This document shows positions 1,615 to 5,219 of a DNA stretch of 10,385 nt, in pieces. The DNA lies in UHGV virus genome UHGV-0113374. The stretch is one strand, 5' to 3'. Below the pieces are notes generated by a model. That model did no database searches and was not told the origin of the DNA. It saw only the letters and a program-made list of their open reading frames with translations. Made by a program: the position numbers and the translations under genes. The stretch is from a virus. Each line of letters begins with the position of its first letter. Within the stretch, counting starts at the first letter, position 1.

Positions 1615-1781
1615 TAAAATCCTGAATATTCGCGAAGAGATTCGATAATTTCCTCGCAGTCGATAAGTAGTTCGTCAGGTTCATCTTCTCGATTTTTAAG
1701 TGCCTCAATGTTCCCAGCTAACTGGCGAAGCATCATTGCTTGCCATTCAGGGTCGAAGCTGTCTGGTATTTCAATTTCCAT
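1614..1781 (-). CDS. hypothetical acidic protein (55 aa, MEIEIPDSFDPEWQAMMLRQ...)
   Basis: ATG 1781-1779 preceded by GAGGTGA SD; 55 codons to TAA at 1616-1614; below the track size cutoff. Confidence 0.5.
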   Translation of the reverse strand: MEIEIPDSFDPEWQAMMLRQLAGNIEALKNREDEPDELLIDCEEIIESLREYSGF

Positions 1782-1924
1782 ATTTCACCTCAAATAAGTT
1801 GTTTGCTGCGAAAGTAAATACGCTTAAGTTACCTGTTATTTATCCCACCAAGTTCCGTATCTATCTATCCAGTTACACCAATCGTCAAACCCCAGCGATT
1901 TTTGTTTGCCGCTTCGATATTTGG

Positions 1925-2107
1925 TCAGCGTACCTCTACTCCTGATGCGCCTCCATCGGGGTCAGGCGACCCATTAAAAGACTTTCTGTGCTGAATTTCG
2001 TAACGAAGCGTCTTAATCGAAACGTCCACGGCATCGGCAAAACTGATGCCTTCTTCATTGGCCAGTTCCTGAACTACTCTTTTCAGTTCATTGTCCAAAT
2101 TTTCCAT
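1925..2107 (-). CDS. hypothetical protein (60 aa from ATG; track ORF starts at upstream GTG 2131)
   Basis: ORF track 1925..2131; internal ATG at 2107-2105 preceded by a GGGGTGAGGG SD-like run. Confidence 0.5.
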   Translation of the reverse strand: MENLDNELKRVVQELANEEGISFADAVDVSIKTLRYEIQHRKSFNGSPDPDGGASGVEVR

Positions 2108-2182
2108 ACCCTCACCCCTTTGTTTATTCACCGCAGGCCACTCGACCCGCTCGATTCGTTCTGTGCGTAATGCTTGCGCCGA

Positions 2183-2320
2183 TCAGACACCCCAAACTCT
2201 GAACCACCAACGAAGAAACATGACGACTGGCGGGGTAGACAGAAGAATGGCCGCAGTGATAAGCAGACCCAAAATGACCCCCTGCACTACGAACGGGAGT
2301 TTTTCATACAGTTTTTTCAT
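2183..2320 (-). CDS. small hydrophobic membrane peptide (45 aa, MKKLYEKLPFVVQGVILGLLITAAILLSTPPVVMFLRWWFRVWGV)
   Basis: ATG 2320-2318 with AAGGAG SD 5 nt upstream; one predicted transmembrane helix; below track cutoff. Confidence 0.5.
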   Translation of the reverse strand: MKKLYEKLPFVVQGVILGLLITAAILLSTPPVVMFLRWWFRVWGV

Positions 2321-2322
2321 GG

Positions 2323-2661
2323 CTACTCCTTAAGAAGGCGCTCAAGGAATGCGCCATTACAGTCAATTACATCGATGATCTCTTTGGCTAATGAATCGAT
2401 ATCGTCGCTCGATTCGAAGTCATCCTGTGGGATGTAAAAGCCACCCTCAGTTTTAAACATAATTTCCTTGACGGTTAATGCTGCAACCTCATACATAAAG
2501 CCATAAACAATGCGTCGAGGGGTGTTATACCTGAGTCCGAGGATCTTTAATTTTTCTGACTCCTGAGTCAGCTGGTCGTATGCCTTTACCAGCTCCGCTA
2601 TCAGTCCCTTTTTCAGCTCACCACGCAGTACGTACATCCCGTTAGCCGTTTTATTTTCCAT
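2323..2661 (-). CDS. hypothetical protein (112 aa from ATG; track ORF starts at GTG 2664)
   Basis: ORF track 2323..2664; ATG at 2661-2659 overlaps the stop of the upstream Zn-ribbon ORF (TGATG), suggesting translational coupling. Confidence 0.6.
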   Translation of the reverse strand: MENKTANGMYVLRGELKKGLIAELVKAYDQLTQESEKLKILGLRYNTPRRIVYGFMYEVAALTVKEIMFKTEGGFYIPQDDFESSDDIDSLAKEIIDVIDCNGAFLERLLKE

Positions 2662-2825
2662 CACCGAACCTCACTCGCTGTTACTTTGAAATATTGCCGC
2701 CGGGCATCGCGTATCTTCTCCAGCTCGCAGTTCTTCGCTGACTGGTGATACTTGCTGATGTGGCAGACCGGAGTGCGTGGATCGAAGTCACGACCGCATA
2801 CCGGGCACTTGATGCTGTTCTTCAT
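2661..2825 (-). CDS. small zinc-ribbon-like protein (54 aa, MKNSIKCPVCGRDFDPRTPVCHISKYH...)
   Basis: ATG 2825-2823 with GAGGTGG SD, just 3' of the N stop; CPxC...C.H spacing; the track ORF 2661..2882 starts at a TTG inside N, so the internal ATG is preferred. Confidence 0.55.
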   Translation of the reverse strand: MKNSIKCPVCGRDFDPRTPVCHISKYHQSAKNCELEKIRDARRQYFKVTASEVR

Positions 2826-2833
2826 GGGCCACC

Positions 2834-3160
2834 TCAGATTAATGCGATGGATTTGCCCTTCGTTTTCTGGCGACCAACACAAGTCACACCCATTTCACTG
2901 CGTGGCTTGCTGTACCATGTGCGCTGATTCTTGCGCTCAATACGCTGCAGGTTGCTTTCAATCTGTTCGTGGTATTCAGCCAGCACCGTAAGGTCTATCG
3001 GATTCAGTGCGCTTTCTACTCGTGATTTCGGTTTGCGATTCAGCGAGAGAATAGGGCGGTTAACTGGTTTTGCGCTTACCCCAACCAACAGGGGATTTGC
3101 TGCTTTCCATTGAGCCTGTTTCTCTGCGCGACGTTCGCGGCGGCGTGTTTGTGCATCCAT
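2834..3160 (-). CDS. N: N transcription antitermination protein
   Basis: 108-aa product MDAQTRRRERRAEKQAQWKAANPLLVGVSAKPVNRPILSLNRKPKSRVESALNPIDL... matches lambda N including the arginine-rich boxB-binding N-terminus; AGGAG SD upstream; nutL upstream. Confidence 0.9.
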   Translation of the reverse strand: MDAQTRRRERRAEKQAQWKAANPLLVGVSAKPVNRPILSLNRKPKSRVESALNPIDLTVLAEYHEQIESNLQRIERKNQRTWYSKPRSEMGVTCVGRQKTKGKSIALI

Positions 3161-3428
3161 CTGGATTCTCCTGTCAGTTAGCTTTGGTGGTGTGGTGGCT
3201 GGTAGTCTAGCTCCAGCTTGTTGAGTCTCATTCGGAGGGGTATAACCGGCACCCCAGCGATTTTTCCATGCGACAACGTGCGCGTTATGGCGGCCTTATC
3301 GCCCGCGGCTCCCCATCTCGTCCACGCTATTGCTAGCGTTGGGAGCGCTTCACCGCTCAACAGTAGGTAAGCACTTGCCAGTGACTAGCTGGCTTCACCA
3401 CACCCCAAAGCCTTCTGCTTTGAATGCT

Positions 3429-3459
3429 GCCCTTCTTCAGGGCTTAATTTTTAAGAGCA
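3429..3459 (-). promoter_or_regulatory. nutL (boxB GCCCTGAAGAAGGGC plus boxA-like TGCTCTTAA on the minus strand)
   Basis: Plus strand gcccttcttcagggc (3429-3443) and ttaagagca (3451-3459) are reverse complements of lambda-type boxB and boxA; located between pL and N. Confidence 0.8.
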
Positions 3460-3498
3460 TCACCTTCATGGTGGTCAGTGCGTCCTGCTGATGGCTAG

Positions 3499-3527
3499 AT
3501 AATCACAAATTGTGTTCGTGCTGTCAA
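3499..3527 (-). promoter_or_regulatory. pL promoter (-35 TTGACA, 17-bp spacer, -10 GATTAT on the minus strand)
   Basis: Reverse complement of 3522-3527 is TTGACA and of 3499-3504 is GATTAT; overlaps the OL sites; upstream of nutL and N. Confidence 0.6.
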
Positions 3528-3648: not shown

Positions 3649-4290
3649 TCAGGAGAATTTCATCATCATCTGCACTGCTACGCCGATTATCTTGCAGTTG
3701 CCGTCGATTGGGATCAACGGATAGGCAGGGTTAAGCCCTTTCAGGTATTTGTTACCGCCATCAATGATTAGCTTCTTGAACGTGGCTTCATTAGCATCTG
3801 TCAGCTTCGCAACTACCAGGCTTCCATTAACGGCTTCCTTTCCAGTGTCGAACAGAACCAGCATACCCTCAGGAACGCTAAGGCCGGTAGGAGCTGTCAT
3901 TGAGTCGCCCTGAACCCTGAGCCAGAAGGCGTCACCGACAACGTGACAATCTGATTCATACCACTCATCCACTGCCTGAGGGTTGTACGGCTCTACGGCC
4001 TCACTCCATGCACCTGCGCTAACCCAGCTAATCAACGGAAACTTTTCCCCTGGCTTGTATTGTCCCTGATAGTTGTCGCCAAAAAGCAGTTCTGCCGGAG
4101 CGACGCCCAAAGCTTTAGCTATTACCTCTGCGTCATCAACACTAACGCTTCTGGTTCCTGATTCATAGTTGCCGATCCGAGATTGTGAAGCCCAGCCGCA
4201 AAGCTCCGCCAGAGCCTTCTGTGAAAGCCCTTTATCTTCCCGTAATCGCTTGATACGCGCGGCGATAGTTTCTGTTCTGTTCATGCGCAT
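3649..4290 (-). CDS. cI: CI-type prophage repressor (N-terminal HTH, C-terminal LexA-like S24 autopeptidase)
   Basis: 213-aa ORF; HTH region LSQKALAELCGWASQSRIGNYESG; Ala-Gly cleavage site in VSAGAW; GDSM serine motif and downstream Lys; C-terminal domain closely resembles P22 C2 and lambda CI. Confidence 0.9.
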   Translation of the reverse strand: MRMNRTETIAARIKRLREDKGLSQKALAELCGWASQSRIGNYESGTRSVSVDDAEVIAKALGVAPAELLFGDNYQGQYKPGEKFPLISWVSAGAWSEAVEPYNPQAVDEWYESDCHVVGDAFWLRVQGDSMTAPTGLSVPEGMLVLFDTGKEAVNGSLVVAKLTDANEATFKKLIIDGGNKYLKGLNPAYPLIPIDGNCKIIGVAVQMMMKFS

Positions 4291-4729: not shown

Positions 4730-5008
4730 ATGCAACTTACAAGTACTCGCAAGAAAGCGAATGCAATTACAAGCAACATCCTGAATCGAATTGCTGTACG
4801 TGGTCAGCGAAAGGTTGCCGACGCGTTAGGGATTAATGAATCGCAAATTTCGCGATGGAAAGACAGCTTTATCCCAAAGATGGCCATGCTTCTGGCTGTT
4901 CTTGAATGGGGAGTTGTTGATGATGAGATGGCGAGACTTGCTCAGCAGGTGGCATCGATTCTCACAAAAGAAAAACGCCCAGCTGTTGGTAGCAGTCTGG
5001 ACGCTTAA
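4730..5008 (+). CDS. cII: CII transcriptional activator
   Basis: 92-aa product from ATG 4730 (AAGGAAA SD); ...ESQISRWKDSFIPKMAMLLAVLEWGVVDDEMARLAQQVASILT... is closely similar to lambda CII; the track ORF 4670..5008 starts at an upstream alternative codon. Confidence 0.9.
   Translation: MQLTSTRKKANAITSNILNRIAVRGQRKVADALGINESQISRWKDSFIPKMAMLLAVLEWGVVDDEMARLAQQVASILTKEKRPAVGSSLDA
4753..4766 (-). promoter_or_regulatory. putative CII-binding site of a pRE-like promoter (TTGC-N6-TTGC on the minus strand)
   Basis: Plus strand gcaattacaagcaa is the reverse complement of TTGCTTGTAATTGC, located in the first codons of cII as pRE is in lambda. Confidence 0.4.
4963..5003 (-). terminator. oop-like antisense terminator at the 3' end of cII
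   Basis: Minus-strand RNA would fold CGUCCAG-(14-nt loop)-CUGGGCG followed by UUUUUCUUUU; positioned like the lambda oop RNA terminator. Confidence 0.4.
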
Positions 5009-5042
5009 GCACACTGTGTTACGCCAAGTAACAGGAGTAATT

Positions 5043-5219
5043 ATGCCAGGACAAACCAAGCAAGTAAACACCGGCATAAAGGCCGGTGACAAGTTCGAAA
5101 CCGTATATCCATTTATCTTCGTATGCACAGATTATCAGTCTTATGACGGCAACGTGCATACCGATGAGCGCTGGATTGGCGGTTGTCACAAAAATTATGA
5201 GCCAGCCGATTGTGGTTGA
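5043..5219 (+). CDS. hypothetical Cys-containing small protein (58 aa)
   Basis: ATG 5043 preceded by AGGAG SD; the track ORF 4836..5219 is an upstream extension overlapping cII. Confidence 0.5.
   Translation: MPGQTKQVNTGIKAGDKFETVYPFIFVCTDYQSYDGNVHTDERWIGGCHKNYEPADCG

Follow-up and report, generated by a model that had tools for sequence, protein, structure and literature searches.

Does a 45-codon open reading frame (ORF) in the early-left operon of a lambdoid prophage encode a genuine protein and, if so, what might that protein do for the phage? The question is raised by positions 2183-2320 of UHGV virus genome UHGV-0113374, a stretch of 10,385 nucleotides referred to below as the window, whose minus strand encodes there a product of 45 aa (MKKLYEKLPFVVQGVILGLLITAAILLSTPPVVMFLRWWFRVWGV). 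An initial annotation, made from the letters alone, had presented this product as an unannotated single-pass membrane peptide of the pL operon and had likened it to Kil-type division inhibitors, host-toxic peptides or superinfection-exclusion factors. The ORF itself and the strong Shine-Dalgarno (SD) sequence reported with it, AAGGAG five bases 5' of the ATG, are confirmed by the sequence. Taken alone, such an ORF is uninformative, because the window contains 114 ORFs of at least 30 aa; it is its conservation that exceeds chance.

The window comes from a lambdoid prophage and covers its immunity, early-left and replication region (Table 1), with Cro, CII, an O-type replication protein, a Toprim/AAA primase-helicase and NinB encoded on the plus strand. 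On the minus strand, a pL-like promoter, a lambda-type nutL and the antiterminator gene N all lie upstream of the peptide gene, so that its proposed location in the pL operon holds; the boxB of the window is identical to that of lambda nutL. From the tight spacing or overlap of successive genes, the peptide gene is the fourth in a chain behind N. Consensus scans detected neither promoter-like nor terminator-like sites on either strand between N and the ORF, and no promoter-like site on either strand downstream of pL (1700-3498), the latter being a weak negative that comes from a consensus scan only; no Rfam family was found in the window. The peptide gene is also downstream of a pL-like promoter in the related loci L014 and L015, and its expression from pL is very probable.

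Table 1. Features of the window, in minus-strand order, followed by the frameshift alleles of the peptide gene in related loci
Feature	Position	Strand	Basis or remark
CI-type repressor gene	3649-4290	minus	Peptidase_S24 and HTH
pL-like promoter	3499-3527	minus	TTGACA-17-GATTAT; promoter-consensus scan
nutL, lambda-type	3429-3462 (approx.)	minus	boxA-like TGCTCTTAA, then boxB GCCCTGAAGAAGGGC; minus-strand reading, stem-loop found
Antiterminator gene N	2834-3160	minus	PF11438 N36, E = 1.6e-26
Zinc-ribbon gene, 54 aa (CxxC...H...H)	2661-2825	minus	Stop overlaps start of 112-aa gene (TGATG)
Orphan gene, 112 aa	2326-2661	minus	TAG (2325-2323) just outside; 2-nt spacing to peptide ATG permits translational coupling
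Shine-Dalgarno AAGGAG	2326-2331	minus	5 nt 5' of peptide ATG, inside last codons of upstream gene
Small membrane-protein gene, 45 aa	2183-2320	minus	ATG 2320-2318, TGA 2185-2183; ORF list and sequence
Predicted membrane-spanning helix, codons 10-28	2237-2293	minus	Invariant G14xxxG18 at 2267-2281
G5 run (CCCCC on plus strand), codons 13-15	2278-2282	minus	Frameshift hot spot
STPP kink and amphipathic Trp/Arg helix (PVVMFLRWWFRVW), codons 28-43	2192-2239	minus	Best-conserved part of peptide
3' linker with SD of next gene	2108-2182	minus	Kept in L014 and L028
Acidic gene, 60 aa, 3' of peptide gene	1925-2107	minus	Accompanies peptide in window lineage only
cIII-like gene	323-493	minus	phrog_550; ends string of small genes after N
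G5 to G4			PDP110P2 (L004), IMG/VR contig L020
G5 to G6			MEI008 (L001), ETEC4091 (L003)
G6 plus four more bases (+5 nt at G-run)			elppa10 (L002), in 21-nt duplication allele
1-nt deletion, CCCCGCC to CCCCCC			L026, L027
G4 to G3 near C-terminus			L028

The zinc-ribbon protein encoded directly after N is C2H2/C2HC-like and falls into phrog_20899, of unknown function. Its gene is annotated by PGAP in elppa10, the equivalent stretch being left blank in MEI008 and ETEC4091 (L001 4564-4735), and its homolog in L014 was overlooked by the gene caller though the stop codon of that homolog overlaps the start of the peptide gene (ATGA). For the 112-aa protein, only near-identical homologs were found, and no usable fold search was possible because its single-sequence AlphaFold2 model was too poor (pLDDT 53.5). 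Guilt by association through this protein thus fails, since it is an orphan too.

The best phage match to positions 1779-2914 is Wanchaivirus PDP110P2 (Hendrixvirinae; 99.4%), and a scaffold from a human-gut metagenome (L024) is 99.7% identical to the window across 7.9 kb. Further downstream on the minus strand (572-937), a DUF2528 gene (PF10800 / phrog_646) is interrupted by two in-frame stops in an otherwise intact frame, a TAA at the position of Ser39 in its relatives and a TGA at that of Gly100. Both stops are common to the near-identical scaffold L024, the copy of PDP110P2 being intact; the gene is a pseudogene in the lineage of the window's prophage.

A protein search with the peptide retrieved twelve tiny proteins, and copies 78-84% identical at the protein level occur in four early-left contexts (L005, L014, L015/L016 and L017). 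Between the window and these divergent copies, third codon positions account for 22-28 of the 29-38 nucleotide differences, with pS of 0.65-0.82 versus pN of 0.07-0.13 (for L014, 0.65 and 0.074, dN/dS ~0.05). Synonymous sites are near saturation between lineages and the peptide is nonetheless kept, a pattern of substitution by which purifying selection in the proposed frame is demonstrated. All three sense frames are open in the window lineage, as are antisense frames in the window, and both the two alternative sense frames and the antisense frames encounter stops in L005, L014, L015 and L017, so that the peptide frame is the only one open across all homologs. The plus-strand ORF at 2091-2333 was tested directly, because it shares wobble positions with the peptide frame; like the antisense ORF at 2174-2437, it was rejected as a gene on account of stops in the homologs. 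An AAGGAG, AGGAG or AGGA stands 5-7 nt 5' of the start in four unrelated contexts, the SD-like AGGAG/AGGA being kept in L005, L015 and L014 despite unrelated upstream sequences. On these comparative grounds, we consider it almost certain that a genuine protein-coding gene occupies positions 2183-2320.

Similarity between lineages starts at the SD/ATG and stops after a short 3' linker; the upstream neighbour may be the 112-aa gene, the zinc-ribbon gene or a divergently oriented sieB, which the peptide gene adjoins in L015 and L016, and there are seven downstream neighbours, all mutually unrelated. From these limits of similarity and the differing neighbours, we conclude that the peptide gene is a mosaic module that stands alone and has an SD of its own in each context. 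A two-component toxin-antitoxin system with a conserved partner gene was also considered and was rejected, on the grounds that no two of the seven downstream neighbours are related.

The 3' linker is a mosaic boundary, because it is conserved with L014 and L028 although their downstream genes are unrelated. This linker (…CACAGAACGAATCGAGCGGGTCGAGTGGCCTGCGGTGAATAAACAAAGGGGTGAG) is located at 2108-2182 in the window, at 5139-5200 in L014 and at about 1660-1700 in L028, and a second type (TAGCAAATCGGTTACGGCGCGTTAATTAACTTATGAGGT…) is common to L005, L015, L016 and L017; both look like boundary sequences used in recombination. In L015 (about 5030-5075) and at the equivalent place in L016, CTGTAGGGGTAT is found twice, some 30 nt apart, just 5' of the peptide gene and beside the divergent sieB. 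These copies could be operator-like or promoter-associated repeats, and the peptide is apparently the first ORF in the pL direction in these two loci. More generally, the accessory region between N and cIII of related prophages harbors sieB, ral, Nmad5 and HNH genes.

The family has no described relatives. Among complete E. coli genomes, four of 5,426 match, three of the four covering the whole locus; viral contigs provided three near-identical loci, and no copy turned up when 185,579 species were scanned with one genome each. Only the clusters of the peptide family itself came back when a profile was run against 1.84 billion representative proteins, and a PDB profile search yielded a chance hit only (E = 1.5). 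A K-12 prophage gene such as ydaG/ydaF was considered as a counterpart and discarded, the divergent DNA matching only two E. coli genomes, neither of them K-12. In the literature, we found no small membrane protein specifically described at this position of lambdoid phages. The best explanation for these searches is an orphan family that would be limited to lambdoid prophages of enterobacteria. It is an uncharacterised new family of a known kind, the small phage membrane proteins.

The description of the peptide as unannotated proved accurate for part of the record. In three RefSeq genomes of E. coli, all with a frameshifted ORF, PGAP annotates nothing at the locus, but intact 45-aa and 52-aa alleles are deposited at NCBI as 'hypothetical protein [Escherichia coli]' (e.g. 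EDY0011870.1, WP_306163137.1). Intact alleles do get called by gene callers, and the remark that the ORF escapes the usual size cutoff was thus overstated. A cluster at 90% identity (P0013, P0017, P0015; 68-aa representative) places the 45-aa peptide together with the 60-aa protein encoded downstream, to which it is unrelated; such an artefact of clustering can hide the peptide from cluster-level searches.

The predicted product displays the features of a helical membrane protein. Its Kyte-Doolittle hydropathy over 19 residues culminates at 2.41 for residues 10-28, in agreement with the single hydrophobic membrane-spanning helix proposed at the outset, and the Trp/Arg-rich tail is equally apparent, the nonapeptide RWWFRVWGV containing three Trp and two Arg. 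AlphaFold2, run with a nine-sequence family alignment, predicted helices at residues 2-28 (pLDDT about 90) and 30-43 with a break at T29/P30 and a mean pLDDT of 84. The invariant positions of the alignment include G14, G18, S28-T29-P30-P31 and V33-M34-F35-L36-R37-W38-W39-F40; substitutions are mostly in residues 2-27 and are conservative. In the C-terminal helix, R37 and R41 are on one face (muH 1.12), and we read this amphipathic helix, as modelled, as the probable interfacial and functional end of the peptide. The charge balance, about +2 on the N side and about +2 on the C side, would fit either orientation. That the product is an integral membrane peptide is highly probable.

Somewhat surprising for a gene with such a history is how often it is broken in related prophages. 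At least five independent frameshifts were identified within its 138 nt (Table 1). When close relatives are compared, all indels but one lie in the peptide gene, the exception being a 3-nt difference at the edge of the L007 homology, and the flanking 342-nt and 183-nt genes are free of frameshifts; at a uniform rate, the probability that four frameshifts all fall within 138 of 663 nt is ~0.002. Apart from the G5 run, the module contains no G/C run of five or more, and a mutational hot spot therefore accounts for part of this clustering. In the divergent lineages there is no such run, nor are the alternative frames conserved, so that a conserved programmed frameshift and dual coding are both rejected; the frames behind the G-run, considered as a second coding sequence, are closed there. 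In an exact look-up, 217 contigs had the 6-G product and 16 had the 4-G product, as against 129 + 19 contigs for intact 45-aa products (19 carrying the exact peptide of the window) and 248 for the intact 52-aa product, these counts reflecting sampling and not lineages or independent events.

The 52-aa product corresponds to the commonest allele, in which an in-frame tandem duplication of 21 nt (TGCGGCCATTCTTCTTATCAA) adds seven residues to the membrane-spanning helix. It is carried by L006-L013, L018 and L019 (peptide gene at about 5001-5159 or 4001-4156) and travels with the 112-aa and 60-aa genes, at ~99% identity, across differing immunity and replication modules. A single-pass helix of 19-26 residues can accommodate such a lengthening; that the commonest allele has it points to a loose structural constraint or to a partly disabled product. 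In L026 (about 1689-1710) and at the equivalent position of L027, the ATG of the downstream 60-aa gene is changed to ATA and gene callers choose an upstream GTG, a second lesion in the module that carries the CCCCGCC deletion.

These frameshifts bear on whether the gene is of any cost to its host. Slippage in G/C runs and neutral decay of repressed prophage DNA could produce them, rather than selection against a toxic product, and the recurrent frameshifting in lysogens is the sole hint, drawn from allele comparison, that the peptide might be costly. The only record with the gene in the phage collection, PDP110P2, which is a phage isolate or a predicted prophage, has the 4-G frameshift, and this is weakly consistent with dispensability. 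Purifying selection over long periods, together with frequent loss from lysogens over short ones, is the pattern expected if an accessory early gene benefits the phage but is neutral or costly for the carrier cell.

The explanation of function that we favor overall, and to which we would give an even chance, is that of a single-pass inner-membrane early peptide acting as an accessory effector on the host envelope; that this effector is costly to the host is a possibility somewhat short of even. The peptide would be a delayed-early product of the N-antiterminated pL transcript, translated probably by re-initiation after the upstream gene with the help of its own strong SD. It would consist of four parts: a basic N-terminus (MKKLYEKLP), a membrane-spanning helix of ~19 residues with GxxxG, the STPP kink, and the Trp/Arg amphipathic helix, which should sit in the membrane interface. 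During lytic development, it could dock through the GxxxG helix, its partner being either the peptide itself or an inner-membrane protein of the host, or else perturb the bilayer through the interfacial Trp/Arg helix. Such an effector would aid the phage, while probably being dispensable for plaque formation and neutral to costly for the lysogen.

The functional guess made at first is plausible in outline, but the analogy with Kil that was drawn in it does not survive comparison. Lambda Kil, which has no predicted transmembrane segment, acts on FtsZ/ZipA (PMC3961180). The two products are alike in size (47 aa for Kil, PF06301, versus 45 aa here), in belonging to an N-dependent early-left operon, in being non-essential and in being plausibly harmful to the host, but they do not match in sequence, and Kil overlaps cIII whereas the peptide gene is located two to four genes after N. 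Kil is a soluble or peripheral peptide that prevents the FtsZ ring from assembling, with filamentation as a result. Moreover, in related prophages with the peptide, a canonical Kil gene is present separately, beside cIII. Because of the missing PF06301 match, the lack of a transmembrane segment in Kil and this separate Kil gene, we conclude that the peptide is not Kil. In the window itself, two minus-strand ORFs (162-326 and 58-165) are found at and beyond the end of the cIII-like gene; the ORF overlapping this end, at the position of kil in lambda, is not PF06301 Kil and belongs to phrog_32687, of unknown function (E = 6e-44). The prophage of the window may, to judge from these assignments, be devoid of a canonical Kil or encode another peptide at that position.

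Other small proteins provide parallels as well. MgrB, AcrZ, MgtS and Blr are small single-pass bacterial regulators in which a basic end and a conserved tail, both short, flank a single membrane-spanning helix. The peptide resembles them in size and architecture, and action through helix-helix contact would be expected of it as well, given its GxxxG; it differs in having no homology to them and in being phage-borne and early-lytic, where they are chromosomal and stress-regulated. In lambda CIII, an inhibitor of FtsH, it is an amphipathic helix at the inner membrane that is responsible for activity. Like CIII, the peptide is a small accessory product of the pL operon with an amphipathic helix; unlike it, the peptide is predicted to span the membrane, and the two share no sequence similarity and are encoded in the same prophages.

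These parallels lead to the foremost alternative, which overlaps our preferred reading: a membrane-anchored inhibitor of division or of another inner-membrane machine (divisome, FtsH or a transporter), similar in function to Kil or to small regulators like MgrB and AcrZ but unrelated to them. The early-left neighborhood of cIII, itself an FtsH inhibitor, and of Kil is in its favor, the invariant GxxxG suggests helix-helix docking, and the juxtamembrane helix is so well conserved that a specific partner seems more likely than general membrane damage. Against this, the seven-residue duplication in the helix of the commonest allele would be odd for precise docking and Kil is already encoded by related prophages. 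We rate this more specific proposal as unlikely, if still worth entertaining.

Superinfection exclusion, or the blocking of DNA entry at the inner membrane in lysogens or during early lytic growth, is a somewhat less probable alternative. HK97 gp15, from an HK97-like phage, and T4 Imm are inner-membrane exclusion proteins, gp15 being a moron with its own expression signals that is active in lysogens. P22 SieA is likewise a phage inner-membrane exclusion protein (PMC10883804), and PMC11436027 has HK97 gp15 among its references. The peptide shares with gp15, Imm and SieA a phage origin and a predicted inner-membrane location; it is a small protein of an HK97-like/lambdoid phage, encoded in the accessory region between N and cIII, and its proximity to sieB in L015 and L016 fits the same idea. 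However, it has no homology to these proteins and no PADLOC or Pfam match, the scan revealed neither a promoter-like nor a terminator-like site belonging to the gene itself, and its layout, with translation coupled to other pL genes, should leave it silent in a repressed lysogen, unlike exclusion genes of the moron type. Frequent loss in lysogens is also unexpected for a function that protects them.

The frameshift alleles invite a bolder proposal, namely that the peptide is a conflict gene: an early-membrane effector directed at a specific host inner-membrane machine and harmful if leaked in lysogens, with the G5 tract as a contingency switch set off (G4/G6) in prophages and on (G5) in phage populations. 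The G4, G5 and G6 alleles do occur in ~99% identical backgrounds, but the divergent lineages lack the tract, which is short. We hold this proposal to be improbable. Were it true, a lambdoid phage would possess a toxic early gene subject to phase variation.

Much the same data could be taken in the opposite sense, the sequence being non-functional in this lineage, as a fortuitous ORF or as a decaying relic conserved through recent ancestry or through an RNA/DNA element. Some 40% of public contig observations are frameshifted, the prophage of the window already contains the DUF2528 pseudogene, and the closest phage record is frameshifted. This is nevertheless very improbable in view of the near-saturated synonymous sites with the peptide preserved, the closure of the alternative frames in divergent copies, the SD motifs retained in unrelated contexts and the intact copy of the window.

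Least tenable is a type I toxin, a hydrophobic killer peptide restrained by an antisense RNA: in size and hydrophobicity the peptide recalls the single-helix products of 20-50 aa of this class (Hok/Gef, Ldr, TisB, Ibs, ShoB), some of which have charged or aromatic flanks, and its recurrent inactivation is compatible with toxicity, but it is embedded in a polycistronic phage operon with coupled starts, no antisense-RNA arrangement, promoter-like site near the ORF on either strand or Rfam family in the window accompanies it, the mosaic junctions at the gene borders leave no space for a conserved antisense gene, and none of the known small-toxin families in Pfam (E <= 0.1), PHROGs, NCBIfam or PADLOC, in which the peptide is without any match, corresponds to it. 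Both the type I toxin and moron-type exclusion are thus disfavored by the lack of own or antisense signals, as far as consensus scans can detect them.

No part of phage genomes is less well characterised than their small proteins, and in lambdoid phages the segment between N and cIII is known to harbor functions in host takeover, anti-restriction and exclusion. The locus also holds a lesson for annotation, having been skipped by PGAP where the G-run is out of frame. The peptide is a cleanly defined and evolutionarily validated orphan, for which nature provides on/off alleles (5-G versus 4-G/6-G) as well as an allele with a seven-residue helix duplication. If it does have a specific membrane target, it would be a new small-protein inhibitor for the toolkit; otherwise, it would be one more accessory gene of these phages.
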